Shown here: in pieces, positions 607 through 32,262 of the stretch
Numbering within the stretch: position 1 is the stretch's first letter
Layout of the letters: each line of letters opens with the position of its first letter
IMG/VR virus record: IMGVR_UViG_3300045988_043480
Location: 1 to 32,262 of that record
Strand: one strand, 5' to 3'
DNA: 32,262 nucleotides
Source: a virus
Translations under genes and position numbers: made by a program
Notes under the pieces: model-generated
Seen by the model: the letters and a program-made list of their open reading frames with translations, nothing else
The model's database searches: none
What the model was told of the DNA's origin: nothing

Positions 607-789
607 ATGAACGCTAAAGACTACACCGCAACGGTGGAGCAGTACGCGGCACGCTGGCACCTCAACGTGCAGACCGTCCGCCGATACTGCCGCGAGAAAC
701 GACTACCCTACATCAAGGTAGGCCACCGCTACTACTTCAACCCCGACATCACACCACTACCAGTAGGAGCAACGATCAACGATGAATGA
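607..789 (+). CDS. Small HTH DNA-binding protein (excisionase/MerR-like family)
   Basis: 60-aa ORF. WHLNVQTVRRYCREKRLPYIKVGHRYYF matches the Xis/helix-turn-helix_17 pattern. It is the first gene of the rightward arm. Confidence 0.6.
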   Translation: MNAKDYTATVEQYAARWHLNVQTVRRYCREKRLPYIKVGHRYYFNPDITPLPVGATINDE

Positions 790-6423: not shown

Positions 6424-8511
6424 GTGAGCTTACTCAGCAATCTCCGCGACGGGTTTATGAGCGCGTTCGACCGCAACCACGCGCCGAGCATGTCCCCCAC
6501 TCCAATGGGCGGGAATATCTGGCAGCCGATGGGCGGCAACAGCATCCCCATGAACGACACCTACGATAACGTGTTCCCCTATGTGAACGCCATCGCCCAG
6601 CGGTTCAGCACGGTGATCCCCTACGCCGTGGACGCGGAGAACAGGCGTATCGAACCGGCCCCCGCACCGTTGGCCGCGCTCTACGCGCCCAACGACACCT
6701 ATTCCTGCCTCGAATTCCTGAAACTCGTTTGCGCCAGCATCCTCACCCAATCCCACTTGGACATCCTTATCTGGACAACCAACGGGCCGGGCGGAGACAT
6801 CACAGCCGACAACATCATCGGCTATACGCTGCTACCGTCCAACAGCCGCCAATACAATTCCACACGCTCCGACTGGTATCACCGCGTCACCATGGACTTC
6901 GGCGAAGGCGAACGAGTCTACGAATTCAGCCGTGATGAAACCATCGCCCTCAGCTACAGTCAGCATCCGAACGACCCGACGCGCGGCATAGCTCCAGCCA
7001 TGACCGTGAAGAAGTGGGCCAACGTGGACGACATGATCGCCGACTATGAACGTGGTTTCTTCGGCAACAACGCCGTACCTGCCGGAATGCTCGGCATCGT
7101 GTCCGAGAACACGGAGGACTTCCAGCGTAACCGCGACCGGCTCGAAAACACGTTCCGTGGAGCCGGGAACAACAACGGAATCGTCTATAACATGATCCCG
7201 GTTGACCCGATGACCCATAAGCCCAGCACCACCAGCAAACTCGTGTGGGTGCCGTTCCAGAACGCCAACGATACGCTGGACTTGCAGACCGTGAACGACG
7301 TGGTGAACAACCGCTTGTCGAACGCGCTCGCAGTACCGGACATTATTCGCGGCATCGACAACGGACAGACCTACGCCAACGCCGAACAGGCCGAACGCGC
7401 GTTCATCGAAAACACGTTAAAGCCGCTGTGTATGACGGTGTGGGATAAATGGCAGTTCGAGCTTGACCGCATCACCGGAGGACTCGGCTATGGCATCACG
7501 TTCGACCTCGATCTACCCTCCCAGACCGACGTGGAGAAGGTGCAGGCGGACACCCAGAAGGTGCGTATCGACTCGCTCACCCAGCTTCTAAGCATGGGTG
7601 CCAGTCTGGAATCTGCCGTGGACGCGCTCGGCCTCCCCGAAGCGTACAAGCGTCTGGACTTGCACCAGCAGGCTCCGACGCTGACTATCCCCATAGCCGC
7701 GAATCGATATGCGCGGAATATCAAACCGCAGGAAACGGCCACCGAGAACCGTATCCTCCCGGCGACGCGACGCTACGTGAACCGAGTAATCCGCATGGCC
7801 CGCCGCTCCCAGAACGGTTTGCGTGATGATCTGGAAGCCATCGGCGACCAGTGGATAAACGACGTGGAAGACGAGTTGATGACCAACCTCGCCGCCTACG
7901 CGCGACGCACCGGCTACGAGCTGGAGCAGGTCATCACCGCGTGGGCGGAAGTCCATCCGGAAAGCGCCATTGCCGTGGAGGTCGAGGGATACACCGCCGA
8001 TGATTGGCGGCAACTCTACTTCTGGAGCGAACTACCCGATACCGTGCGTGAAGCGTACTTGGAGCACTTGCGTAGCATCGCCAAGTCCACCAGCAAGACC
8101 ATCACGAACAACGTCCTTGAACTCCTGAACCGTGCCGACGTGGAACAGTGGAACGCGGAACAGTTGCGCGACCGTCTCGAACGATTGGGCAACGATCACG
8201 CCGAACTTATCGCCCGCTGTGAGACGGTGCAATCCCAGCGGCTCGGCAGCTTGTACAGCGCCCGCAACCTCAGCGAAACGCTCGGCGTCCGACTGGACAA
8301 GGTATGGCGCACTTCCGGTGACAGCAAGGTATGTGAATTCTGCCGCCACATGGAAGGCGACCGCATCCCGCTCGATGACACGTACATGGCTGAGAACGCC
8401 AGCGTGGAAATCGGAGACCGCACGTATGTCAACAACTTCGAGAGTATGCAGACGCCGAACGGACACCCCAACTGCCGTTGCTACGAGGATTACGAGGTGG
8501 TGGAATCATGA
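6424..8511 (+). CDS. Portal protein fused to a MuF / SPP1 gp7-like head morphogenesis domain
   Basis: 695 aa, GTG start after GAGGA. The N-terminal ~450 aa are portal-like. The C-terminus carries the MuF signature VWRTSGDSKVCEFCRHMEGD...NGHPNCRC. Confidence 0.85.
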   Translation: MSLLSNLRDGFMSAFDRNHAPSMSPTPMGGNIWQPMGGNSIPMNDTYDNVFPYVNAIAQRFSTVIPYAVDAENRRIEPAPAPLAALYAPNDTYSCLEFLKLVCASILTQSHLDILIWTTNGPGGDITADNIIGYTLLPSNSRQYNSTRSDWYHRVTMDFGEGERVYEFSRDETIALSYSQHPNDPTRGIAPAMTVKKWANVDDMIADYERGFFGNNAVPAGMLGIVSENTEDFQRNRDRLENTFRGAGNNNGIVYNMIPVDPMTHKPSTTSKLVWVPFQNANDTLDLQTVNDVVNNRLSNALAVPDIIRGIDNGQTYANAEQAERAFIENTLKPLCMTVWDKWQFELDRITGGLGYGITFDLDLPSQTDVEKVQADTQKVRIDSLTQLLSMGASLESAVDALGLPEAYKRLDLHQQAPTLTIPIAANRYARNIKPQETATENRILPATRRYVNRVIRMARRSQNGLRDDLEAIGDQWINDVEDELMTNLAAYARRTGYELEQVITAWAEVHPESAIAVEVEGYTADDWRQLYFWSELPDTVREAYLEHLRSIAKSTSKTITNNVLELLNRADVEQWNAEQLRDRLERLGNDHAELIARCETVQSQRLGSLYSARNLSETLGVRLDKVWRTSGDSKVCEFCRHMEGDRIPLDDTYMAENASVEIGDRTYVNNFESMQTPNGHPNCRCYEDYEVVES

Positions 8512-8648
8512 CTTACGACATTCATTGTAAACGCTGCGGACGCTACCTAGGCTCCTGCGCCCGCGACACCATGGTTACATTGAAGTGCCCGAACTGCAAA
8601 GGCCTGGACACGTATCGCATCGTGCTACTATGGGGGTCAGAACATTAA
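8508..8648 (+). CDS. Com-like zinc-ribbon protein (46 aa)
   Basis: ATGA overlap with the portal stop. Translation MTYDIHCKRCGRYLGSCARDTMVTLKCPNCKGLDTYRIV. The C-x2-C-x16-C-P-x-C-K spacing is the same as in phage Mu Com. Confidence 0.6.
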   Translation: MTYDIHCKRCGRYLGSCARDTMVTLKCPNCKGLDTYRIVLLWGSEH

Positions 8649-8701: not shown

Positions 8702-10519
8702 ATGAAGACTCGTAAGAGCTTCGCCAACAGCGGTGCCCCAGAAACCAATGGCCGTACCCTCACCTTCCTCGCCAACAGCGGCAAAGTGATGTGCGACGGA
8801 CTCACCGTAGACCTCAAGACACTCAAAGCGCCGCTTATCGACGGCAGCCTGAAACTGGTGTCCGACCTCACCGAGTCCGACAAACTATCCCTCCCGCTCC
8901 TGATCGACCACATGCCCAGCATCGAATGCCAGGCGGGTGCAATCACCCGACTTTGGATAACCGATGACGGGATGATGGCCGAAGCGAAACTCAGCGAGGT
9001 AGATCAAGGCGAACGCATCCGCCAGCTCGCCGCCGACGGATGTTTGACCAATAGTTTCAGTATCACCGTTGAATTCAACCAGAGTCCCGGCAAGGACGGT
9101 ATTATCCACGATGGCGAATTGCTGGAAATCAGCGTTGTGTATCGTGGTGCCGACCCACGGGCCGCTTTCACCGCAATCAACAGTCGAAACAACACGAACG
9201 GAGACACCATGAACCCGGAACTCCTGAAGAAGCTGGCGCGTACCATCGCCCAGTTCAAACTCACCCCGGACGAGGCGGAACAGCTCACCACGTCCATCGG
9301 TGAGATCATGCAGGGCGCGCTTGATGACATCACCGAAGCCATCGGCGAACAGTCCGACTCCAACAATGAGGAAAACACCCCTGCTCCGGAGGAACCCGTG
9401 CAGACTTCCAGCGGTCGCCAGACCATCATCATCAACAAAGCCAACCACGCCGCCCACCAGTCGGGTACCGTGAAGTTCTCCCACGATCGCAAGACGTGGC
9501 TGGACTCCGACGACGCCATGATCGCTTTCGAGCGTGCCCTGATTGATACCGATAACAAGGGTGTCGAAGCATTCCATAAGGAGTGGGCGGACACCGTGAA
9601 CCGTAACATGGCGGATACCGCGTCGTTCGGCGTGGACGCTACCAACGTGACCAAGTTCATTCCGACCGAGGCCATCACTACGATCTCGGACGCTTTGAAC
9701 ACTCGCGGCTCCGGCCTGTGGAACCTGCTGCGCAAGACCGGCATGGATCGCCTGACCATCGGCGGCAACGTTGCTGGTCTGACCGAGCAGACCCGCGCCT
9801 ACGGCTACCCGGTGTCCTCCTACGGCACGGAGAAGACGGAACAGAAGCTTTCGTTCGTGAAGCGTGAGCTTCAGGCCGACTACACCTACAAATACATTAC
9901 GTTGAACAAGGGTGATATTCGCCGCACCCAGCGTCCGGGCGCTCTGCTCCGCTACGTGTTGCAGGAGCTGCCGAACTACATCATCCAGACCATCGAGCGT
10001 CAGGTTACGCTCGGCGGCTACACGGATATGGCTCACTTCCGTAGCGTGGTGACCGACGCGGCAGACAATTCGTCCGAGTGGGAGGGCAACCGTTTCGCGC
10101 TCTCCTACACCATGACGGATAACGCTCCGCTGATGGACTTCGTTCGCGCCTCCCACATGGTTCGCGCGCAGGGCAACAAGGTGCTGCTGTGCAACGCTGA
10201 TACTGTTGCCGACCTTCTCATGTCCGCGAACGCGAACGGTAACACGTTCATCGCTCTCGGCGGTGACGATACTCTGGCCCGCGCCCTCGGCGTTAACCAG
10301 ATCATCACCCCGGAATGGTGGACTGACACGGACGACACCAAGACTATGGGTGTCATCATGGCCGCGTCCCACTACGCTGTGGTTGGCGATACGTCCATCG
10401 AGGCGTTCACCAACTTCGCGCTCTCGACCAACACCAACGAGTATCTTCAGGAGATTTACGCTGGTGGTGGTCTGGACGCGGAGAAGTCCGCCGTGGTCAT
10501 CAAGCCGAAGGGTGAATGA
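8702..10519 (+). CDS. Prohead protease (S78/HK97-type), scaffold-like linker and HK97-fold major capsid protein as one fusion
   Basis: The N-terminus has LLIDHMPS, SFSITVEF and ISVVYRGADPRA, typical of HK97-family proteases. A coiled-coil acidic segment follows, then a ~300-aa capsid-like C-terminus. Start chosen at MKTRK after AAAGGG. Confidence 0.8.
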   Translation: MKTRKSFANSGAPETNGRTLTFLANSGKVMCDGLTVDLKTLKAPLIDGSLKLVSDLTESDKLSLPLLIDHMPSIECQAGAITRLWITDDGMMAEAKLSEVDQGERIRQLAADGCLTNSFSITVEFNQSPGKDGIIHDGELLEISVVYRGADPRAAFTAINSRNNTNGDTMNPELLKKLARTIAQFKLTPDEAEQLTTSIGEIMQGALDDITEAIGEQSDSNNEENTPAPEEPVQTSSGRQTIIINKANHAAHQSGTVKFSHDRKTWLDSDDAMIAFERALIDTDNKGVEAFHKEWADTVNRNMADTASFGVDATNVTKFIPTEAITTISDALNTRGSGLWNLLRKTGMDRLTIGGNVAGLTEQTRAYGYPVSSYGTEKTEQKLSFVKRELQADYTYKYITLNKGDIRRTQRPGALLRYVLQELPNYIIQTIERQVTLGGYTDMAHFRSVVTDAADNSSEWEGNRFALSYTMTDNAPLMDFVRASHMVRAQGNKVLLCNADTVADLLMSANANGNTFIALGGDDTLARALGVNQIITPEWWTDTDDTKTMGVIMAASHYAVVGDTSIEAFTNFALSTNTNEYLQEIYAGGGLDAEKSAVVIKPKGE

Positions 10520-10713
10520 TGAACGCTGAAATGTACGCACGAGTCGGCGGCAAGGCGCTGCCCGAAGACAACGTGAACACGGTTAAGGTCATCAACTTTG
10601 TTGACGAAGAGGGCCAGCCTGTCGGTAAGGCCGCTCACGTTGACCCGACCACTGGCACGGTAACGCAGGTGGTGAACGCTCTGATCGCCGCAGGCCTGAT
10701 GGCGTCCGCCTGA
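10516..10713 (+). CDS. Small head-associated hypothetical protein
   Basis: 65 aa with an ATGA overlap with the capsid gene stop. A strong terminator follows. Confidence 0.5.
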   Translation: MMNAEMYARVGGKALPEDNVNTVKVINFVDEEGQPVGKAAHVDPTTGTVTQVVNALIAAGLMASA

Positions 10714-12154: not shown

Positions 12155-12583
12155 ATGATTGATCTGGCCATGTGCATGACCCTGCAAAACGAGGGTTTCG
12201 GCACTTACGGTAAGACCCTGTTCTTCGGCACCAGTCCCGTATTGGACACGGGTAGCGTCACGAACGCCGAGGGCATCTGGGTCAACGCGAACACCGTGGA
12301 TATCAACGGCGACCTGTATACCGACCAGTTGACCATCAGTAGCCGCTACTTCGACGTGATCGAGCAAGGACATTTGATGCTCAGGTTATTGCGTTTCGTC
12401 AACAACAAACTGCATGACTATTGCAGGCTCACCTGCGACCCCATTGCTGATATAGACTTCACATCAATCCGCGTGCATCCGGCGACCGCCATAGACATGG
12501 ACGCCATCGACGGGGAAGGCCGATGGGTGAAAAGCATCCGGTTCAACGTGGATTACAAACTCGACCCAGCAACGGTAGAATAG
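12155..12583 (+). CDS. Tail terminator / minor capsid-like protein
   Basis: It lies immediately upstream of the major tail gene. 142 aa. Confidence 0.4.
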   Translation: MIDLAMCMTLQNEGFGTYGKTLFFGTSPVLDTGSVTNAEGIWVNANTVDINGDLYTDQLTISSRYFDVIEQGHLMLRLLRFVNNKLHDYCRLTCDPIADIDFTSIRVHPATAIDMDAIDGEGRWVKSIRFNVDYKLDPATVE

Positions 12584-24848: not shown

Positions 24849-24886
24849 CCCGGCACTGGTCTTGATGACTGGTGCCGGGTTCTTTT
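24849..24886 (+). terminator. Intrinsic terminator for the rightward arm
   Basis: Hairpin cccggcac / gtgccggg followed by ttctttt. Confidence 0.65.
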
Positions 24887-25563: not shown

Positions 25564-25893
25564 CTAGTCTTTAGTCAGAATGTCGTACCCGAGGTGTTCG
25601 GCCAACCGCAACCGGTATTGCTTCTGTGGTTTGCGGCGTCCGGTTTCCCACATGGCGATCACGTTCGGGCTGGCTACGCCGATTCGTTCGGCGAGTTCCG
25701 CCTGTGAATACCCGTGGCGTAGCCGCCAGTATTTGATGCACTGGCCGATGGTTACGCGGTCGCTGATGGTCTCGTAGTCAACGGGGATGTTGCCGACGTT
25801 TTGTCGGGTGAAGAACTGGCCTGTTTGGCTGTCTTGTTCCACGGTGACTTCGTGGCCGTTGATTACGGTTTTGATCTTGTCTTGCTTGCGCAT
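25564..25893 (-). CDS. XRE-family HTH transcriptional regulator with an N-terminal extension
   Basis: IGQCIKYWRLRHGYSQAELAERIGVASPNVIAMWETGRRKP is a canonical Cro/CI-type HTH. Its own promoter carries the TGATATA-N5-TATATCA palindrome. Confidence 0.8.
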   Translation of the reverse strand: MRKQDKIKTVINGHEVTVEQDSQTGQFFTRQNVGNIPVDYETISDRVTIGQCIKYWRLRHGYSQAELAERIGVASPNVIAMWETGRRKPQKQYRLRLAEHLGYDILTKD

Positions 25894-25914: not shown

Positions 25915-25953
25915 TGATATATCTATTATATCACATTGTTTCTGTTTCGCCAA
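25915..25953 (-). promoter_or_regulatory. Leftward promoter with palindromic operator (copy a), upstream of the XRE gene
   Basis: The minus strand reads TTGGCG, a 17-bp spacer, then the extended -10 TGATATAAT. The palindrome TGATATA-N5-TATATCA is at 25915-25933. Confidence 0.6.
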
Positions 25954-26212
25954 ACAAGTCGGCAACAGCTTCGCGCCCGTCGTCAGTCAGAGCAAACCGC
26001 CAGCAATGCCGGTGCCGACTGTTCACACCCTCCCTATCGACACGGCAGACATAACCGGAACGTTCAAGCTCGATCATGCGCGACCTCAAACCCTGAGGGG
26101 TGTCATCGTACTTCGCGGCACCCGCCATCTGTTCGATTTCCTCGTGGGTAAGCGGACGCTTCGCCACCCACAGAATCAGCAGCACATGCACCTGTTGCTT
26201 GCCGAACATCAC
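25931..26212 (-). CDS. Putative winged-helix DNA-binding protein
   Basis: VHVLLILWVAKRPLTHEEIEQMAG...LRSRMIELERSGYVCRVDRE resembles MarR/PadR-like wHTH proteins. Confidence 0.5.
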   Translation of the reverse strand: MMFGKQQVHVLLILWVAKRPLTHEEIEQMAGAAKYDDTPQGLRSRMIELERSGYVCRVDREGVNSRHRHCWRFALTDDGREAVADLFGETETM

Positions 26213-26574
26213 GCCACCGCCATTTCAGCGGAGTGGCGGAGGAACGCGGCCACACTCGCAGTCACAATCCATCCGGCAACCCACTTGACCCCGAACCGTA
26301 CCCGGTTGATCTTGGCTGCCATCGCCCACACCGGGAGCGACACCCACGGGCTGAGACACCAGCCGCAGTAGGCAAGTTCTCCGAGACTGCCCGCGTAATC
26401 CTTGGCCCATGTGGGGAGCGAGTTGGGCAGGTTCTCGGTCTTTACGGTCAGCTTGCGGCGGAGCGCTGAGAACGCATAGCCGGGGCCGGGGGAGAGTTGC
26501 ACCACGGTGGTGGCGTATCCCGCTGTGATTCCAGCGGAAAGCACGGCAGTCCACCAGTTCAGCTCAGGCTTCAT
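26209..26574 (-). CDS. Membrane protein, DUF1360-like
   Basis: Start at MKPELNWW. It has TM segments and a CGWCLSPWV motif like the C-x-x-C-x-x-x-W motif of DUF1360. Confidence 0.5.
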   Translation of the reverse strand: MKPELNWWTAVLSAGITAGYATTVVQLSPGPGYAFSALRRKLTVKTENLPNSLPTWAKDYAGSLGELAYCGWCLSPWVSLPVWAMAAKINRVRFGVKWVAGWIVTASVAAFLRHSAEMAVA

Positions 26575-26902
26575 CGGTCTTCCTTTCCTCGTGGCGACGC
26601 CAGCAGTGATACCGCTTGTCGTAATCCGCGTACAAGTCTTCGTAAAGCTGCTTCGCTTCCTTGGTGGCTTCATCATGGGTGAACCCGTGGTGTTCCAAAG
26701 CGTATTGCGCGGCACCGACCCAGATCGAGCGCCGAACATGCTGATACCAGCGATCGAACAGCTTGCCACACACCTTGTCGTGCTTGTTGTCCCCGAGGAA
26801 ATCGGCCACGCTCTCCACCACGAACTTACGCAGCGTGTTCACGGTGATACGGTTACGATCGAACAGCTCCAGCACATCGGTGGTGAAAGTGTCAGGCTTC
26901 AT
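26564..26902 (-). CDS. Hypothetical protein (112 aa)
   Basis: Start at MKPDTFTT overlapping the upstream stop. The protein ends ...KTDEA. Confidence 0.5.
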   Translation of the reverse strand: MKPDTFTTDVLELFDRNRITVNTLRKFVVESVADFLGDNKHDKVCGKLFDRWYQHVRRSIWVGAAQYALEHHGFTHDEATKEAKQLYEDLYADYDKRYHCWRRHEERKTDEA

Positions 26903-27215
26903 CGGTTTCCTCCTTTTCTTCGGTTTCGTCATCGTCCACCAGATAATCGTCAAGGCTGATATCTTGCGGCTCGAAGTAGATCAACCCGTCCAGCAAGATC
27001 ATCGGGTAACGCACGATTACCCCTTGGTCTTTGGCAATGGTGCGTATCGCTCTGGCGGTAGGGCTGCCCGACGATACGATGCGGAGCCTACGATTCATTT
27101 GCTGGGCGTATACGCGGCACGACACCAGATAACCGGCGTCCTGCCACTTGCACGTAGGGCACCCGTCGAACAGGACGAACATGTCCCGGCTTTCCAAGAT
27201 CGTTGCGGTCTTCAT
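26892..27215 (-). CDS. Glutaredoxin/NrdH-like thioredoxin-fold protein with an acidic tail
   Basis: MFVLFDGCPTCKWQ contains the CPxC redox motif in a beta-strand/helix context. The protein ends ...ETDEA. Confidence 0.5.
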   Translation of the reverse strand: MKTATILESRDMFVLFDGCPTCKWQDAGYLVSCRVYAQQMNRRLRIVSSGSPTARAIRTIAKDQGVIVRYPMILLDGLIYFEPQDISLDDYLVDDDETEEKEETDEA

Positions 27216-28123
27216 CAGAACGTCACCCCCAATGCGTTGGCCAGCACATCCGAGATATGGAGAGTGGCCAACTGGCGACGCTTATGCTCGGCAATCTCCG
27301 TTTCAATATCCTTGCGATAGACGGGGATGACTTGATGGTGCGCCGCCCCGACCACGCGCGGGTCAAACATCGAGAAGTAGAGGACTTCCAACGAGTCGCA
27401 CACCACGAAGTACTGGAGTACCTGAGCTTTGTACTGCTCGGGGATGAAGTCGAGGCCAGTCGCCTTGCCGTCCAGCGTGTACTCGGGCAACACCTGTTCG
27501 ATCACGTCCACCAGTTCAGGTTTCAGGTTGGCGATGTGGGTTCGCATGGCGTCCGTGTGCATCATCCACGGCACCACGGTCTGCAAGTGGTAGGCGGAGC
27601 CGAGCGACTTGCATTCGATGGCCCACGTCGGCTTCTCAACGTTCTCGTAGGCGTCCGGACTGCAAGCGATACGGTCGTCGTCGTCACTCTCCCAGATACC
27701 GCAGTCGGTCACGCAATCGCCGGGGTCGAAGCCAAGCACGTTGAGCGTGAGCTGGATGTTCTCGGGTTCGAGACGGTGGCCGCGTTCCATCGGCGGTTCA
27801 CCGTCCGCTGGTTCGGCCCACAGTTCCGCGACAAACTTCCAGAAGTCCACGCCGACCTTCAGCCGCTTGTTCTTCGCTTCGGCGTCCACGATCTTCTCGT
27901 CGTAGTTCTGAGCCTTCGCGTAATACTCATTGGCTTTCTCGGGCGTCTTCGCCTTCTTGGCCTGTTCCAGCGCCTTGTCTCGGTACTCCACGAGTTTCTG
28001 CACGTCGGTCTGGGCGTAGTGTTCCAAGGCGAGTCCGCCGCTTTTGGTGCCGGTGATACGGCCCATGCGTTCATCGAGCCATGCTTCCGTTTCGGTGGCT
28101 TGCGATACGTTGATGATCTTCAT
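27215..28123 (-). CDS. YqaJ-like (lambda Exo-type, PD-(D/E)XK) recombination exonuclease
   Basis: Start MKIINVSQATETEAWLDERMGRITGTKSGG after GAAAGGA. The catalytic region is ACSPDAY...WAIECKS. Confidence 0.8.
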   Translation of the reverse strand: MKIINVSQATETEAWLDERMGRITGTKSGGLALEHYAQTDVQKLVEYRDKALEQAKKAKTPEKANEYYAKAQNYDEKIVDAEAKNKRLKVGVDFWKFVAELWAEPADGEPPMERGHRLEPENIQLTLNVLGFDPGDCVTDCGIWESDDDDRIACSPDAYENVEKPTWAIECKSLGSAYHLQTVVPWMMHTDAMRTHIANLKPELVDVIEQVLPEYTLDGKATGLDFIPEQYKAQVLQYFVVCDSLEVLYFSMFDPRVVGAAHHQVIPVYRKDIETEIAEHKRRQLATLHISDVLANALGVTF

Positions 28124-28182
28124 TGGTGTTGTCCTTTCGGTTGGGGTGTGGGCGGGTGACGAGTCCCGCCCACAGGTATCCA

Positions 28183-28533
28183 TCACGCGAAGCGCGGAGC
28201 ATACTGGTGGATGATGGAGCGAATCTCCTTGAACAGATTCCACGCGGTATCTTGCAGAACGCTTTCCGGGGCGTCGATGGAGTCGAGCGCTTCGGAGTAT
28301 TCCACGCATCCGTCCGTGTAGATCGGATCGTCGCTTTCCGTCCACCAGAAGATAGAGAACAGGAAAACGTGGTTTTCCACGTCCTCGGTGACTCGGGCGC
28401 GCAGCCGGGTATCAGTGAACGTGATGATCGCCGTATCATACGGTTCCCGTTCCGATTCCCAATGGATGCCGCTGACTTTATCGAAGTCAAACACATACTG
28501 GTTGATGACGGTGAAGAGGTTGATGCTGTTCAT
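28183..28533 (-). CDS. Hypothetical protein (116 aa)
   Basis: Start MNSINL, 6 nt after AAGGAG. It is preceded by promoter cassette copy b. Confidence 0.55.
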   Translation of the reverse strand: MNSINLFTVINQYVFDFDKVSGIHWESEREPYDTAIITFTDTRLRARVTEDVENHVFLFSIFWWTESDDPIYTDGCVEYSEALDSIDAPESVLQDTAWNLFKEIRSIIHQYAPRFA

Positions 28534-28550
28534 TGCGACTCCTTGGGTCA

Positions 28551-28606
28551 TATATCAAGCCCCGTGCTTGATATATATAATATATCACAATGTGGTTGGT
28601 GGAGCA
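28551..28606 (-). promoter_or_regulatory. Leftward promoter, operator and 5-prime hairpin cassette (copy b)
   Basis: The minus strand reads TTGCTC, a 17-bp spacer, then TGATATATT. The palindrome TGATATA-N5-TATATCA is at 28568-28586, and the hairpin ATATCAAGC-N5-GCTTGATAT is at 28551-28573. Confidence 0.6.
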
Positions 28607-29055
28607 ATATGGCGTGTCGCGGAAAAATCAGCCATCGCACGGCAGTAATACAACACCAGCTTCGCCAACGGCCCGACATTCCGCCACTTCGGCGTACCCG
28701 ACATACTGACACTGGTGCCTACAGCGCCGATGTCTTCAAGGCTTATCCGCGCATACCGTGCGCCCTTGGTCATGATCTCAAGCCCGATGGAGGACGCGGA
28801 CACCCACCATCTTGCGGTACGCTCCACCAGCTTCCCGCCCATGGGAATTTTGTAGTCGGCGGAAAGCCTGAGAACACCCAGATTGATAAGATCAGTGGAC
28901 GTTGTTACTGTGATTTTCTCGGGCGTGTACTCCAATTCGTCCCAGTCCAGCTTACGGCCACGCTTCACCGGACGCTCAAGAAGGACAAGCATGGTGTTGT
29001 CCTTGATCTCTTCATCCAAGCTCTTGAGCAGCTTAATCATCATCGCTTCATCCAT
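28585..29055 (-). CDS. Hypothetical protein (156 aa)
   Basis: ORF in operon context. No family recognised. Confidence 0.55.
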   Translation of the reverse strand: MDEAMMIKLLKSLDEEIKDNTMLVLLERPVKRGRKLDWDELEYTPEKITVTTSTDLINLGVLRLSADYKIPMGGKLVERTARWWVSASSIGLEIMTKGARYARISLEDIGAVGTSVSMSGTPKWRNVGPLAKLVLYYCRAMADFSATRHIAPPTTL

Positions 29056-29306
29056 CAGATGCCTCCTTCATTGGACTCCAAGCCGCCCACCAGACTGAAC
29101 GTGCTGACCATAAACATTGACACGCCCGCGAACATCACGATAAGGGATGGCAGGCCGATGCTCCACGAGCATCCTCGCGCCACGGAGCAGACCACGCATC
29201 CGCCGAAACCCGCCCCGGCGACGAACAAACCTAACATCATTAAGGCGACACACATTGCGACATCGCCAGCGCCGAACTCTCTAGCCCCGTTCTTGTGCTT
29301 GCTCAT
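29055..29306 (-). CDS. Small membrane protein (83 aa, 2-3 TM segments)
   Basis: Hydrophobic segments VAMCVALMMLGLFVAGAGFGG and LPSLIVMFAGVSMFMVSTF. Confidence 0.55.
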   Translation of the reverse strand: MSKHKNGAREFGAGDVAMCVALMMLGLFVAGAGFGGCVVCSVARGCSWSIGLPSLIVMFAGVSMFMVSTFSLVGGLESNEGGI

Positions 29307-29800
29307 TTCAAGTCCTCCAATTCCTTTTCGATCTCTTCGCCCATCTTCTCCGACATGGGACGCGGATCATCAATATACGCCTTGATGCCCTTACACATGT
29401 GGCCGATAAGCCGGTGGGTGATGTTCGCGTAATCCATGCTCGGGACAGACATGTTCAGGTCTCCCAATTCGGTTTCAAACTGGAACACGCCCACGATTTC
29501 GGCGGCGTCGTCCCGGTGCAACGGTGTAGGTTCCGTGCTGGCGACCAGTGCGCCGCAACCGGGCAGTTCAGTCTTCGCCTGATCTGAGTCCGGGTAGAAG
29601 TTGTGGACGTATTCGATGATGCTCAGCAGGTCTTCAGCGACTGGTTCCGGTACGTCCGCCATCACGCCGCATGTGACGCTGAACTGGGTTCCTTCCAAGA
29701 AGTCGTAGTGAGTAGTGAACAGCAGTTTGGCGTTCTCAGCGTCCTTGATGCTGTCAAGAACGATCTGCGGGTTGGCCGCCGCGTACAGTGTGACGTACAT
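29303..29800 (-). CDS. Hypothetical protein (165 aa)
   Basis: ORF overlapping the next gene by 4 nt. No family recognised. Confidence 0.55.
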   Translation of the reverse strand: MYVTLYAAANPQIVLDSIKDAENAKLLFTTHYDFLEGTQFSVTCGVMADVPEPVAEDLLSIIEYVHNFYPDSDQAKTELPGCGALVASTEPTPLHRDDAAEIVGVFQFETELGDLNMSVPSMDYANITHRLIGHMCKGIKAYIDDPRPMSEKMGEEIEKELEDLK

Positions 29801-29812
29801 TAGTGGGTCCTT

Positions 29813-30412
29813 TCAGATTCGGGTGTGGGAGATTGCGTTCATAAGGTTGTCTAGATCGGCTTGGGTGAGTCCACGCCATCCCCTGACCTGACGGTTAAGA
29901 GTGCCGTTGATAAACTCGCCGCGCGCCTCGGACGGGATATTATGGGCCTTCATCGCTTGGACAAGCTCGGCGTACTGTTCCGCGCTTATGGGACGGTCAG
30001 CATTCTCGTAACGCTGTTTCGCATACGCGCCGTCATCGTCCTTGTCAGGGAAGATGCCCAACACTGCGTAGAGACTGTAGCGGCGGGCGTAGGTGATGGC
30101 GCTGCCGACCTGCTGGGGGTCGCCGGTGACGAAGAACGGGTAGGAGCAGGCGACCATCAGGTCTTTATCATCGAAGATGATGGTCTCCACCTTTCCGATG
30201 ACCTGCCGCGCTTCTCCCTCGTTGGAGAACGTTACGCGCTGGCTGAACCCCAGCCCGTGCTTCTCGAACACGGGTTTGATGGTCTTGAGGATCGTGGCGA
30301 GGTTGAGGTACTTGTAAGTCCGGTTGCCCGCCTGCGCTGTTTCGTCGGTGACGAAGTTGGGCACCTCGTTGAGGACTTTCATGAACCTTGTGTAGAGGTT
30401 GTTTTCCATCAC
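29813..30412 (-). CDS. erf: ERF-family single-strand annealing protein
   Basis: YKYLNLATILKTIKPVFEKHGLGFSQ and GSAITYARRYSLYAVLGIFPDKDDDG are ERF superfamily signatures. Confidence 0.85.
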   Translation of the reverse strand: MMENNLYTRFMKVLNEVPNFVTDETAQAGNRTYKYLNLATILKTIKPVFEKHGLGFSQRVTFSNEGEARQVIGKVETIIFDDKDLMVACSYPFFVTGDPQQVGSAITYARRYSLYAVLGIFPDKDDDGAYAKQRYENADRPISAEQYAELVQAMKAHNIPSEARGEFINGTLNRQVRGWRGLTQADLDNLMNAISHTRI

Positions 30413-30436
30413 TGTTCCTTTCCGCTAGTAGTGTGA

Positions 30437-30475
30437 TGATATAATCAGTATATCACTAGTCCATGTAGAAGTCAA
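30437..30475 (-). promoter_or_regulatory. Leftward promoter with palindromic operator (copy e), upstream of erf
   Basis: The minus strand reads TTGACT, a 17-bp spacer, then TGATATACT. The palindrome is at 30437-30455. The plus strand of the same palindrome reads TGATATAAT. Confidence 0.6.
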
Positions 30476-30749
30476 TATCCGCATCTCGCATGGCGTGCAA
30501 ATAGAACTCGCCCAATTGCTCTTCGGTGGGCGGATTGTTGTGGAAGTCGAACCAGCCGCTGCCGTCCGACGTGCAAACACTGCCATCCCAATGGATGTCG
30601 TAATTCACGGTCTTCGGATACCGGGGGCTGAGGTGCAGGTCGAACATGGTGCCGTTGTCGAACCTGATATGGATATTGTCGGCAATTCGGGTGACGTTCT
30701 CGATGTGGCGGCGGCCGGTCAGGTACTTGGCGATGCTTTCGATAATCAT
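30456..30749 (-). CDS. Hypothetical protein (97 aa)
   Basis: Start MIIESIAKY after AAGGAGG. It is preceded by promoter cassette copy c. Confidence 0.55.
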   Translation of the reverse strand: MIIESIAKYLTGRRHIENVTRIADNIHIRFDNGTMFDLHLSPRYPKTVNYDIHWDGSVCTSDGSGWFDFHNNPPTEEQLGEFYLHAMRDADIDFYMD

Positions 30750-30774
30750 TTGGGTTACCTCCTTGGGTATAAGC

Positions 30775-30827
30775 TCAAGCCGTTTGCTTGATATATATAA
30801 TATATCACATGTGGTAGTGTTAGGCAA
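30775..30827 (-). promoter_or_regulatory. Leftward promoter, operator and 5-prime hairpin cassette (copy c)
   Basis: The minus strand reads TTGCCT, a 17-bp spacer, then TGATATATT. The palindrome is at 30789-30807 and the hairpin TCAAGC-N5-GCTTGA is at 30775-30791. Confidence 0.6.
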
Positions 30828-30867
30828 ACGCGACACGCGGAGAGCCGAAACCCTCCGCGCTCGCAGA

Positions 30868-31239
30868 TCAACAATCGCAACCAGTCGTGTAATACACCAC
30901 GTCCGCGTCATCGTTCTCAAACTGCAAACTCAGAAGATGCACCAGCAACTCCAATCCGCCATAGTTGTACGCCTGCACGAAAAACTCCAGATACTCCGGT
31001 TGATTCGCCTCCAGCATGTACAAAGGCCTGGCCCAATCGGCTCCATAATCCTGCGTATAGTCGTCGAACGCCTTATCGAAGACCTTCTCCGGCACGTAAC
31101 CGTAATCTCCGATACGGTAGATACCTTGCTTCTCGCTGTAATCATCAAGATCATGCAATTCCGGAATCAGGCGGATGTCGATCTCTTTAATCATGTCACG
31201 CACGATATCTATCGAGATCGTAACCTTTTCGCGTTCCAT
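30868..31239 (-). CDS. Acidic hypothetical protein (123 aa)
   Basis: ORF in operon context. It is Asp/Glu/Tyr-rich. No family confidently recognised. Confidence 0.55.
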   Translation of the reverse strand: MEREKVTISIDIVRDMIKEIDIRLIPELHDLDDYSEKQGIYRIGDYGYVPEKVFDKAFDDYTQDYGADWARPLYMLEANQPEYLEFFVQAYNYGGLELLVHLLSLQFENDDADVVYYTTGCDC

Positions 31240-31241
31240 CT

Positions 31242-31649
31242 TTATCGCTCCTTTGCTTGGTCAGCGGCTTCGTACTCGGTGCCGTCAGCGTCGATCACAA
31301 CCCTGGTAACAGTGTGATGCGATTCGGTTCCGTACTTCATCTCAACCGTTTTGTACAGCGCTTCCGTGAATCCGGAGTAGCTTGCGCATTCCAGCATCTT
31401 TTCGGCCATCTGTTCGATAGTCAGCCAACGATTCTCATAGCAGAGCCAAGCGTATTCCTCCCAGCCCATGTAGGTTTCGTTCCAATCGTCTCGAATCAGA
31501 TTGGCCAGCTTGAAGACTGGGATGTACCCGTAGGGTTCGTGGTGGTAGTAGTAGCCGCACGGTTTGGGCGTCTGAGTCCAATGATCTTTTGCAAGGTGAA
31601 TGACGTGCTGGATGCCGCCTCGGATGGTCTGGATGTAGGTCTCGTTCAT
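31242..31649 (-). CDS. Hypothetical protein (135 aa)
   Basis: Start MNETYIQ after AAGGAGG. It is preceded by promoter cassette copy d. Confidence 0.55.
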   Translation of the reverse strand: MNETYIQTIRGGIQHVIHLAKDHWTQTPKPCGYYYHHEPYGYIPVFKLANLIRDDWNETYMGWEEYAWLCYENRWLTIEQMAEKMLECASYSGFTEALYKTVEMKYGTESHHTVTRVVIDADGTEYEAADQAKER

Positions 31650-31671
31650 TGTGTCCTCCTTGGGAATAGTC

Positions 31672-31725
31672 TCAAGCCCGATCGCTTGATATACCCATTA
31701 TATCACTATTGGGCTGTTGAGTCAA
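31672..31725 (-). promoter_or_regulatory. Leftward promoter, operator and 5-prime hairpin cassette (copy d), inside the 3-prime end of the replication gene
   Basis: The minus strand reads TTGACT, a 17-bp spacer, then TGATATAAT. The palindrome is at 31687-31705 and the hairpin TCAAGC-N6-GCTTGA is at 31672-31689. Confidence 0.65.
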
Positions 31726-32262
31726 ATTCGGCACGCCATCGCCGCCGCTCTCGGGAAAGAACTCACGCTCCAGCGCCTCCACTCCACCAGTGGCACCCCA
31801 ATACGCACGCCGCGCCCGCAACGTGGTCGCCACGTCAGCGGACATGGAATCGGGAAGCCTCCGAGCCATCCAATTCGACAACTGGGCTTCGCTTCGCTGA
31901 TCCTGCTTCCGAACCCTCCAATTAACCGCGTTGGCCAGCCACACGGGCAAGGTGCGCACGTACTGCAATGGCGTACCCTGGCAGGACTCCACGAATCGTT
32001 TCGCGGCCCTCATAAGCGCGTCGGCACCGACTTCATCGAACGCCTGATTGAAATACCGCAAAAGTTCGTTCGATACCCTGCACTTCTTCGGCCACAAGTC
32101 CATAAGCGCCTTGAGCGTCTCCGATGAATGGCAGGCGACTGTGATTTTTTCTTCTTCGCGCGGGGATTGTTCTTGGGTTTTGTTCTCTTGGGTTTTGTTA
32201 GTCAAAACCTCGTTTTGGGGTAGGTCAAAAGCAGGTTTTGAGGGGTCAAAAGCAGGTTTTGG
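31672..32262 (-). CDS. C-terminal part of the wrap-around replication initiator. Bases 32144-32262 duplicate 1-119.
   Basis: The frame is open to the window edge. It reads ...LTNKTQENKTQEQSPREEEKITVACHSSETLKALMDLWPKK... and is continuous with the minus-strand frame of 1..440. Confidence 0.65.
   Translation of the reverse strand, partial: PKPAFDPSKPAFDLPQNEVLTNKTQENKTQEQSPREEEKITVACHSSETLKALMDLWPKKCRVSNELLRYFNQAFDEVGADALMRAAKRFVESCQGTPLQYVRTLPVWLANAVNWRVRKQDQRSEAQLSNWMARRLPDSMSADVATTLRARRAYWGATGGVEALEREFFPESGGDGVPNLTQQPNSDIMGISSDRA
32144..32262. repeat. Second copy of the 119-bp terminal direct repeat
   Basis: Base-for-base identical to 1-119 by direct reading. Confidence 0.95.

Follow-up and report, generated by a model that had tools for sequence, protein, structure and literature searches.

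Why should one exact 19-bp palindrome recur five times along a single arm of a phage genome, each time on top of a promoter-like sequence? The window, i.e. the whole stretch of DNA analyzed (32,262 nt, from a gut phage of ~32 kb), contains five perfect copies of TGATATA-N5-TATATCA, all located by a pattern search in the leftward arm and read here on the minus strand. The preliminary description had reported five exact copies and none elsewhere, which is borne out by the pattern search and by the absence of any perfect dyad from 100 dinucleotide-preserving shuffles. A search tolerating 2 mismatches added a single site in the window (12448-12466), and ten of the twelve TGATATA heptamers found on both strands are arms of the five dyads. 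Four of the five positions originally listed were correct; the remaining copy, given as 28568-28586, was off by one and lies at 28569-28587.

Copy 1 (TGATATAATGGGTATATCA, 31687-31705) falls inside the replication gene, at its 3' end, and precedes a 135-aa gene (31242-31649). Copy 2 (TGATATATTATATATATCA, 30789-30807) is preceded by a GC hairpin (GCGGAG..CTCCGC) and lies upstream of a 97-aa gene (30456-30749). Copy 3 (TGATATACTGATTATATCA, 30437-30455) adjoins this gene and lies upstream of erf (29813-30409), the identity of which was confirmed. Copy 4 (TGATATATTATATATATCA, 28569-28587) is found within the 3' end of a 156-aa gene and upstream of a 116-aa gene (28183-28533). Copy 5 (TGATATAATAGATATATCA, 25915-25933) precedes a gene for an XRE-family protein, and a winged-helix (wHTH) gene has its stop codon in the first three bases, TGA, of this copy. 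The gaps between dyad and start codon in copies 1-5 are 37, 39, 27, 35 and 21 nt; the range is thus 21-39 nt and not the 22-40 nt given earlier, and all five downstream genes have, as described, a good Shine-Dalgarno sequence, of the GGAG/AAGGA type.

The extended -10 element is TGATATAAT at 31705 and 25933, TGATATATT at 30807 and 28587, and TGATATACT at 30455. As already proposed, a TTGNNN hexamer lies exactly 17 bp upstream of the -10 element in every case: TTGACT (31720-31725) for copy 1, TTGCCT (30822-30827) for copy 2, TTGACT (30470-30475) for copy 3, TTGCTC (28602-28607) for copy 4 and TTGGCG (25948-25953) for copy 5. The -35 element of copy 4 scored under the threshold of the promoter scan and was therefore taken directly from the sequence. 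In copy 1, the -10 hexamer occupies 31702-31697, and transcription is predicted to start near A31690. Among 298 unique sites of the phage family, the bases of the -35 TTG are found in 281 (T), 241 (T) and 217 (G), those of the upstream TG of TGTGn in 266 and 242, and the T at -7 in 294. The arrangement is that of extended -10 (TGn or TRTGn) promoters of the sigma-70/sigma-A type: TGTGn directly precedes TAnnnT, TTGnnn stands at a distance of 17 bp, and 7 nt past the -10 there is a purine. In ordinary promoters of this type, however, the -10 is not mirrored by a conserved sequence on the other side of the start site.

The mirror image could form a face-to-face bidirectional promoter, firing antisense into the upstream gene. 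Of the five, copy 3 alone also gives TGATATAAT when the plus strand is read (the antisense promoter had earlier been assigned to "copy e", which in the order listed is another copy), and an antisense TAnnnT is present at two of the three sites of bee phages. Nevertheless, a direct reading of the sequence shows no TTG where the antisense -35 of copy 3 would lie, the antisense strand of contig L216 reads TAGTTA at both of its sites, and no more than 65 of the 298 family sites, and one of the five in the window, have the antisense counterpart of the -7 T, so that an antisense promoter is not a conserved feature. We consider this explanation highly improbable. As the -7 T is nearly invariant on the sense strand and its mirror is not, the five sites resemble genuine extended -10 promoters of the sigma-A/sigma-70 type that work in one direction, and the right arm must be conserved for another reason.

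The scan of related phages that had been suggested found the motif conserved in 68 of 80 related IMG/VR loci, with a total of 232 exact copies. A partner arm at N5 accompanies 83% of the left arms and 90% of the right arms. In the main clade, where the left arm is exact (211 sites), the right arm has just 9 mismatches in all; where the right arm is exact (241 sites), left-arm position 7 varies in 25. Here the inner ATATA/TATAT is self-complementary because both arms are alternating AT, and the informative positions of the dyad are the outer bases and position 3/17 only. In a distant human-gut clade, where each site lies directly 3' of a GC-rich terminator-like hairpin and is followed by a Shine-Dalgarno sequence and a start codon, left-arm position 3 can be A, T or C without position 17 changing to match, and right arms have diverged to nATATCA or nACATCA. 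The symmetry of the dyad is therefore not strict.

A further constraint comes from the divergent control region (441-606), in which a shared TTGCAA -35 element (572-577) serves a rightward -10 TATATT (595-600) and a leftward -10 TATAAT (554-549). The first leftward promoter (-35 577-572, -10 554-549) drives the replication gene. The TGATATA dyad is absent from this region, so the first leftward promoter stands outside the proposed circuit, and the earlier view that the dyad promoters control the whole arm does not hold. Additionally, an AT-rich stretch lies between the -10 and the start of this dyad-less promoter, and part of the right arm could consequently be a general promoter feature.

These observations fit a reading in which the 19-mer is only a very strong conserved promoter, the palindrome a by-product and no repressor involved, the right arm acting as an AT-rich discriminator or initial transcribed sequence that would aid melting, start-site choice or escape. 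The AT-rich run at the first leftward promoter, the automatic self-complementarity of alternating AT arms, the better conservation of the main-clade right arm than of left-arm position 7, the uncompensated position 3 of the distant clade, and the similarity of the whole leader in three of the five copies, which suggests duplicated cassettes, all speak for it. We regard it as unlikely because of what is found when lineages are compared. From lineage to lineage the two arms switch as a pair, and in any one genome they are uniform: the main clade has TGATATA/TATATCA, the bee Bifidobacterium phages BlindUri1 and BlindBasel1 have TGTTA/TAACA at all 3 leftward promoters, and contig L216 has TGGTAGT-N5-ACTACCA at both sites. 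Since neither the bee-phage nor the L216 arms consist of alternating AT, their symmetry is non-trivial; an element for melting or escape need not mirror the -10, and a promoter alone leaves unexplained why TAACA occurs exactly with TGTTA and ACTACCA exactly with TGGTAGT. This arm covariation rests on three lineages, the two minor ones having 3 and 2 sites, and the bee-phage pattern alone is not significant (3 sites versus 1.06 expected from shuffles). Change between lineages combined with uniformity within each genome points to a dimeric protein with sequence specificity rather than to a plain promoter or a hairpin. Such a protein, probably a repressor, would act at the dyad, which itself appears to be under selection via a trans-acting factor. 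The single phage HTH regulator of the preliminary description is thus retained insofar as a shared dimeric DNA-binding protein would give the lineage pattern, but not as a regulator acting arm-wide, since the dyads are not.

Preservation of pairing by two-arm changes between lineages would also be expected of a nucleic-acid hairpin, either an RNA stem-loop serving as a processing or stability signal in read-through transcripts or a DNA cruciform, and the 19-mers do fold better than their own shuffles (z = -2.1 to -2.6). The RNA stems, however, reach only -3.4 to -4.0 kcal/mol, and stable cruciforms need arms longer than 7 bp. Because the left arm precedes the predicted start, it would be missing from each promoter's own transcript. 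Moreover, the arms are identical at all paralogous sites of a genome, whereas a structure requires pairing and not a fixed sequence, and no G-U intermediates were seen in the dyad. A hairpin is accordingly a very unlikely explanation of the palindrome.

G-U intermediates are seen in an adjacent element that the preliminary description had missed. Three of the five copies (1, 2 and 4) are followed by a stem-loop at the 5' end of the predicted mRNA: TCAAGC-gatcgg-GCTTGA (31672-31689, minus strand) for copy 1, TCAAGC-aaacg-GCTTGA (30775-30791, minus strand) for copy 2 and ATCAAGC-acggg-GCTTGAT (28554-28572, minus strand) for copy 4. That of copy 1 starts one base past the predicted transcript start, and its 3' arm contains the stop codon of the replication gene. 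The stem-loop was found at 117 of 279 unique family sites, with six core pairs kept in nearly every sequence and 90.7% of cells pairing over the seven counted pairs. The stem, of about -8 kcal/mol, covaries from AU to GC through GU and from GC to AU or UA, and several measures exceed 500/500 shuffles. The leader of ompA is an example of a 5'-terminal stabilising stem-loop of a bacterial mRNA; the stem-loop described here, which likewise begins no more than 1-2 nt from the predicted 5' end, probably stabilises the transcript. Unlike the ompA leader, the 5' strand of its stem overlaps the right arm of the dyad (TCA), so that the same bases would serve both a DNA and an RNA element.

Which protein might bind the dyad? 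The XRE-family protein (109 aa; 25564-25893, minus strand) consists of an N-terminal domain and a C-terminal HTH_3 domain (Pfam, E = 8e-11, confirming its earlier identification), with weak sequence similarity to the 434 repressor and SinR. It is syntenic near the arm end, with the same two-domain layout, in all four groups, and its gene lies downstream of a dyad promoter in every lineage; this synteny makes its earlier proposal as regulator a reasonable one. Its 86-96% identity in the main clade ranks it with the best-conserved early proteins. Differences in its recognition helix track those in the half-site between lineages: SPNVIAMWE or GHNVIAMWE, and SSPTIVMMWE, occur with ATATCA, AQAIRYWE with TAACA, and KNTVYRWE with CTACCA. 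We infer from these correspondences that XRE is the best candidate for a dyad-binding repressor. Its own promoter carries a copy in the window, as noted earlier, but autoregulation through it is not universal, this dyad promoter being deleted in two genomes (L047 and L049) and absent from the other lineages.

A real operator bound by some other protein seems doubtful. Variants with SP replaced by GH at the start of the XRE recognition helix (L003, L026) keep the dyad unchanged, which favours another binder. The second candidate, a MarR/PadR-like winged-helix protein (92 aa; 25931-26209, minus strand), is identified by its predicted fold only (AlphaFold2 pLDDT 80; Foldseek matches to MarR/MepR-like proteins, TM about 0.63). 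This fold is typical of palindrome binders, and conservation of the recognition helix across the main and distant clades is good; however, a family HMM detected no ortholog in BlindUri1 (best E = 0.35), and the protein, also proposed earlier, is a weaker candidate because the bee phages have dyad promoters but no detectable ortholog of it. The third candidate is an excisionase/MerR-like HTH protein (60 aa; 607-789, plus strand), the gene of which opens the rightward arm, is apparently leaderless and is present in all lineages, the bee phages included (about 31% identity). Made first from the rightward promoter, in the position of an immediate-early regulator, it could act as a Cro-like switch from the other arm; yet its excisionase matches are weak (E about 0.08), and such proteins are often monomers on direct repeats. 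A host regulator would need matching changes of specificity in different hosts.

To judge from these sequence comparisons, the five 19-mers are most likely strong host-type promoters, each fused to a site for one phage repressor. The 19-mer would form the core of a host sigma-A-type promoter (TTGnnn, 17 bp, TGTGn and a TATAAT-like -10) driving one short operon after another along the leftward replication/recombination arm. The extended -10 would itself be the dyad's left arm; the right arm would span about -3 to +4, with the predicted start at the A in dyad position 16, and the two arms would combine into an operator of two-fold symmetry. Occupation of this operator by a dimeric helix-turn-helix protein of the phage would block RNA polymerase, and once the protein had accumulated all five promoters would be turned down together; we infer repression rather than activation. 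XRE, the most likely binder, would in every lineage be made from the last dyad promoter and would thus provide negative feedback. We consider this promoter-operator reading as a whole, with XRE as the protein, to be probable.

In Streptomyces phage phiC31, a temperate phage whose c repressor maintains lysogeny, the repressor binds conserved inverted repeats (CIRs), many copies of which overlap early promoters across the early region, so that one repressor governs a chain of promoters. The present case resembles it in that one short inverted repeat recurs at promoters over the early region of an actinobacterial phage; it differs in that the extended -10 itself serves as left half-site, the sequences are unrelated, and neither an integrase nor prophage relatives were detected in the family. 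The stoperators of cluster A mycobacteriophages (L5 gp71, Bxb1 gp69) are asymmetric, orientation-dependent 13-mers of temperate phages, found within and between genes, which stop elongation. They too are one repressor site (putative here) repeated along actinophage transcription units, but the sites described here are symmetric, few and always fused to a promoter. At PR and PL of the lambdoid phages (434, P22, lambda), a Cro or CI dimer on a 14-19 bp dyad blocks RNA polymerase; overlap of dyad and core promoter and an HTH_3-type binder (a candidate here) are shared features, whereas lambdoid operators form clusters at two divergent promoters and work as a cooperative switch, and here five promoters of one arm each carry a single operator, the divergent control region having none. 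The proposed circuit would thus be a familiar kind of phage control, in the setting of an abundant, unstudied phage family.

A pattern search of the window identified exactly five perfect copies of the dyad TGATATA-N5-TATATCA, located at 25915-25933, 28569-28587, 30437-30455, 30789-30807 and 31687-31705. The preliminary description had reported five such palindromes, each accompanied by a TTGNNN hexamer at 17 bp, and both features were borne out by the search and by direct reading of the sequence; four of the positions were correct as first given, but the second was off by one base. The exact dyad did not occur in any of 100 dinucleotide-preserving shuffles, and tolerating two mismatches added a single, unrelated site at 12448. 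All five copies consist of two-fold symmetric half-sites, with perfect 7-bp arms at a fixed spacing, and their arms account for 10 of the 12 occurrences of the TGATATA heptamer in the window. On the minus strand two copies read TGATATAAT, two read TGATATATT and the remaining one reads TGATATACT. Every copy contains a TAnnnT -10 hexamer with a TG one base upstream, and exactly 17 bp upstream of the -10 lies a -35-like hexamer (TTGACT, TTGCCT, TTGACT, TTGCTC and TTGGCG). The dyads are separated from the next start codon by 37, 39, 27, 35 and 21 nt, with a Shine-Dalgarno sequence present in each case.

Erf-based retrieval yielded at least 142 IMG/VR relatives, of which 80 loci were kept. Scanning these related phages for the motif, as had been suggested, revealed exact dyads in 68 of the 80 loci (232 in total, one to six per locus). 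A family set of 298 unique sites was then defined by allowing up to two mismatches, the flanks playing no part in the selection. Among these sites the counts for TTG at the 17-bp position were 281, 241 and 217, the -7 T was kept in 294, and an additional conserved TG just upstream of the -10 extends this element to TGTGn. In the distant human-gut clade, whose Erf is 72-76% identical, each site shows the same order of a GC-rich terminator-like hairpin, the dyad, a Shine-Dalgarno sequence and the start codon. The conserved TTG, TGTGn and -7 T, together with this context, represent the anatomy of extended -10 promoters. It is strongly supported that the dyad sites would serve as such promoters for the main sigma factor of the host, with activity and start sites that we infer from the sequence. 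Counted along the sense strand, the -10 occupies dyad positions 4-9 and transcription would be expected to begin at the A of position 16, which places the right arm at about -3 to +4 and the whole dyad at about -15 to +4 of each predicted promoter, overlapping the core promoter. In the distant clade (L069-L080) the hairpin, GGCGTGTC...GACACGCC, stands about 30 nt upstream of every dyad promoter, forming terminator-promoter units, and hairpin remnants (GACACGCCG) can also be observed upstream of both dyad sites of L216, a contig described below.

A second conserved element gives an indirect hint at the predicted start. In copies 31687, 30789 and 28569 the dyad is immediately followed by TCAAGC-N5-6-GCTTGA, so that stem-loops at 31672-31689, 30775-30791 and 28554-28572 would form the predicted 5' end of three transcripts; the right-arm TCA supplies the beginning of the stem, whose 5' strand overlaps the dyad. 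A hairpin starting at the predicted +1 or +2 was found at 117 of 279 unique family sites. In an alignment of 46 sequences the six core pairs are kept in nearly every sequence, and 90.7% of cells pair over the seven pairs counted. Two stem pairs have changed on both sides, substitutions in the stem lead from AU to GC by way of G-U and from GC to AU or UA, and none of 500 shuffles reached the observed value in any of four stem-loop measures. The stem contributes about -8 kcal/mol. Since the G-U intermediates are on the sense strand, they suggest that the structure is formed by RNA, right at the 5' end of the mRNA, which is the classic position of a stabilising stem-loop. The erf and XRE copies have short leaders without the stem-loop. 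In the leader of the 116-aa gene (28533-28554) and its orthologs, the Shine-Dalgarno sequence lies between short complementary triplets that covary (GAC...GTC, AAC...GTT and GAC...GTT); on thin evidence, these may enclose the ribosome-binding site in a second, small hairpin.

The window begins and ends with the same 119 bases (1-119 and 32144-32262), which indicates that the genome is circular or terminally redundant, with a length of 32,143 bp. Some early genes, followed by structural and lysis genes, are read rightward, and the replication/recombination arm is read leftward from a divergent control region (441-606) across the junction to about 24,890. This arm encodes an HTH_36 replication protein (minus strand, start at 440, across the junction, stop at 31672), Erf, a YqaJ-type exonuclease, a DUF1360-like protein, a winged-helix protein, an XRE protein and an HNH endonuclease. 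The replication gene is driven by the first leftward promoter (minus strand; -35 TTGCAA, 577-572; -10 TATAAT, 554-549), and the palindromic TTGCAA (572-577) is also the -35 of a rightward promoter with the -10 TATATT (595-600). The rightward gene begins with ATG at 607, 7 nt after this -10, so its mRNA would be leaderless. The TGATATA dyad is absent from the first leftward promoter in both the window and its relatives; the dyad promoters had been thought to span the entire early arm, and the proposed circuit is therefore restricted to five internal promoters. Overlapping the leftward promoter is another dyad, GCATATA-N7-TATATGC (539-559), which is variable in relatives.

Two further elements of the genome should be mentioned. 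Four iteron-like repeats inside the replication-initiator gene (56-155; consensus GGTCAAAAsCnGGTTTTGGGG, spaced 21-30 nt, each a small dyad) are a candidate replication origin, as in lambda O, and a 13-bp GC-rich stem-loop with T runs (24849-24879), situated between the converging arms, is likely a bidirectional terminator. With these separate repeats in place, with dyad copies always linked to promoters upstream of genes, and with weak dyad stems, we rejected restriction or methylation, terminator, packaging and origin sites as identities for the dyad. An intrinsic terminator was dismissed in particular because the dyad offers an all-A/U-rich 7-bp stem with no T run.

The closest cultured phages are BlindUri1 and BlindBasel1 of honeybee Bifidobacterium asteroides (terminase 50% identical), and the catalytic domain of the lysin shares 61% identity with a protein named from an uncultured Bifidobacterium. 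Based on these terminase and lysin similarities, the host is probably a Bifidobacterium. No cultured representative of the phage family was found, and a megablast comparison of the leftward arm with 50,697 GenBank phages gave no match; the family is very common in human-gut metagenomes, some protein clusters having more than a thousand member sequences.

The symmetry of the dyad admits several explanations. A bidirectional or antisense promoter would call for two facing -10 elements, and, as the preliminary description had noted, TGATATAAT can be read on the plus strand of one copy as well, although this is the one at 30437, beside the 97-aa gene, and not 'copy e'. An A at position 11, the mirror of the -7 T, occurs in only 65 of the 298 family sites and in one of the five window copies, so the palindrome does not consist of two facing -10 elements, and we regard this explanation as highly improbable. 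Within the main clade the right arm is extremely conserved, with nine mismatches in total among 211 sites whose left arm is exact, and left-arm position 7 is more variable (25 of 241 sites whose right arm is exact). A partner at the N5 spacing accompanies 83% of left arms and 90% of right arms. In the main clade the symmetry is partly trivial, because ATATA and TATAT are mutually reverse-complementary, and this clade is compatible with a cassette that is a promoter and nothing else.

Other lineages are more informative in this respect. The three leftward promoters of BlindUri1 and BlindBasel1 are TGTTATACTGATGATAACA, TGTTATACTGATACTAACA and TGTTACTATGTTAATAACA; in all of them the left-arm TGTTA is mirrored by TAACA, a pattern that taken alone is not significant against shuffles. 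An exonuclease-profile search of IMG/VR recovered one new lineage, L216 (IMGVR 3300045597_000067), whose sites TGGTAGTCTGTAACTACCA and TGGTAGATTTTAACTACCA have the half-sites TGGTAGT/ACTACCA and match the synteny of the window, one following the replication gene and the other the winged-helix gene. Positions 3/17 are A/T, T/A and G/C in the main, bee-phage and L216 lineages, respectively, and positions 6/14 are T/A, T/A and G/C; the half-site is identical at every site of a genome, and both arms change together between lineages. The minor lineages contribute few sites (three from the bee phages and two from L216). A search with the L216 Erf returned no IMG/VR contig other than its own and no match among the metagenome contigs, so this lineage is represented by one genome, and the Erf of BlindUri1 had no match in IMG/VR. 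The distant human-gut clade is only partly symmetric, since position 3 varies uncompensated and the right arm is nATATCA or nACATCA.

A dimeric, sequence-specific protein would account both for the covariation of the arms between lineages and for their constancy within a genome. A plain promoter element has no reason to mirror its -10, and the mirrored arms of the other lineages would be left unexplained if the cassette were a promoter only, which we consider unlikely. An RNA or DNA hairpin needs pairing alone and would not fix the sequence within a genome; moreover, the dyad stems are worth no more than a weak -3.4 to -4.0 kcal/mol and the predicted start lies downstream of the left arm, which makes a hairpin very unlikely. 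Covariation between lineages instead supports the dyad as a putative repressor operator of the Cro/CI/XRE type.

Searches for shortened, 17-base and 14-base versions of the dyad in IMG/VR returned, among the matches listed, mostly single chance ones in unrelated contigs together with the same family. L251, also retrieved with the exonuclease profile, has no dyad. An unrelated 43-kb contig found via the exonuclease (L278, IMGVR_UViG_3300013901_000020) carries a different repeat, AACATG-N5-CATGTT, four times within about 560 bp (10142-10703), possibly an operator cluster or an origin cluster that belongs to another system.

Regarding the binding protein, XRE (25564-25893, minus strand), with an N-terminal domain and a C-terminal HTH_3, was proposed earlier because its own promoter carries a dyad. 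The private promoter proved to be confined to the main clade, and is deleted in two of its loci (L047 and L049), but the gene is syntenic, lying close to where the leftward arm ends in each of the four groups, namely the window, the distant clade, BlindUri1 (8200-8613) and L216 (9888-10400). It is always downstream of the last dyad promoter, which makes negative feedback possible everywhere. Its recognition helix is SPNVIAMWE or GHNVIAMWE in the main clade and SSPTIVMMWE in the distant clade (right half-site ATATCA in both), AQAIRYWE in the bee phages (TAACA) and KNTVYRWE in L216 (CTACCA). We infer that XRE ranks first among the candidate binders. In BlindUri1 (MT006234.1) this gene is annotated merely as hypothetical, and an HNH endonuclease ORF (7878-8198, minus strand), 53% identical to that of the window, is unannotated in the GenBank record.

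The operator may also be real and bound by another protein, a reading that overlaps with the main explanation and seems to us rather improbable. The 92-aa protein (25931-26209, minus strand), the other candidate named at the outset, is a MarR/PadR-like winged helix by predicted structure (pLDDT 80; MepR-type matches, TM about 0.63) and has an ortholog in L216, but a family HMM detected none in BlindUri1. Homolog searches with XRE and with the winged-helix protein gave matches only within this phage family. A further possible binder is the 60-aa excisionase-like HTH protein (607-789), which every lineage has and whose gene, apparently leaderless, is the first of the rightward arm.

As far as can be seen, the arrangement is not a lysogeny switch, because no integrase was detected and the divergent control region is free of these dyads. 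A search of TerL against GTDB (one genome per species) gave only distant matches, at 30-52% identity and in unrelated bacteria, and did not reveal any prophage of the family. The dyad promoters functionally resemble the conserved inverted repeats of phiC31 and the lambdoid operators that overlap promoters, and more loosely the stoperators of mycobacteriophages. Stoperators are asymmetric sites that depend on orientation and lie within the transcription units of temperate phages; an actual stoperator was rejected since the dyads are symmetric and occur at promoters only, with no integrase or prophage relative found. This is a known type of phage regulatory arrangement in a family for which our literature searches found no description, nor any paper on the motif. 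Its distinctive detail is that one putative half-site is the extended -10 itself; in L216 the -10 reads TAGTCT or TAGATT, a drift in step with the mirrored ACTA arm.

Upstream of erf, recombination joints inside the 19-mer were observed in loci L004, L035, L006, L007, L012, L013, L021, L023 and L039. Some of them join an erf-type left half to a hairpin-type leader, others have the right arm alone behind a terminator hairpin, and one locus contains a tandem duplication. We tentatively propose, as a possibility short of probable, that repressor and sigma factor read the same extended -10 bases, so that their specificities must co-evolve, and that the promoter-operator-leader unit may be a portable cassette, whose 19-mer serves as the site of crossover when phages exchange modules.

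Should the operator reading be wrong, a well-defined strong-promoter consensus for the phage family would still stand. Genetic tools for bifidobacteria are limited, and, if the host assignment holds, the lineages could supply orthogonal promoter/repressor pairs for engineering them. For the family itself, strong promoters, a likely operator and three lineage-specific variants provide a testable model of early-gene timing and a natural specificity series, in which a repressor would co-evolve with a site that must also stay a -10 element.
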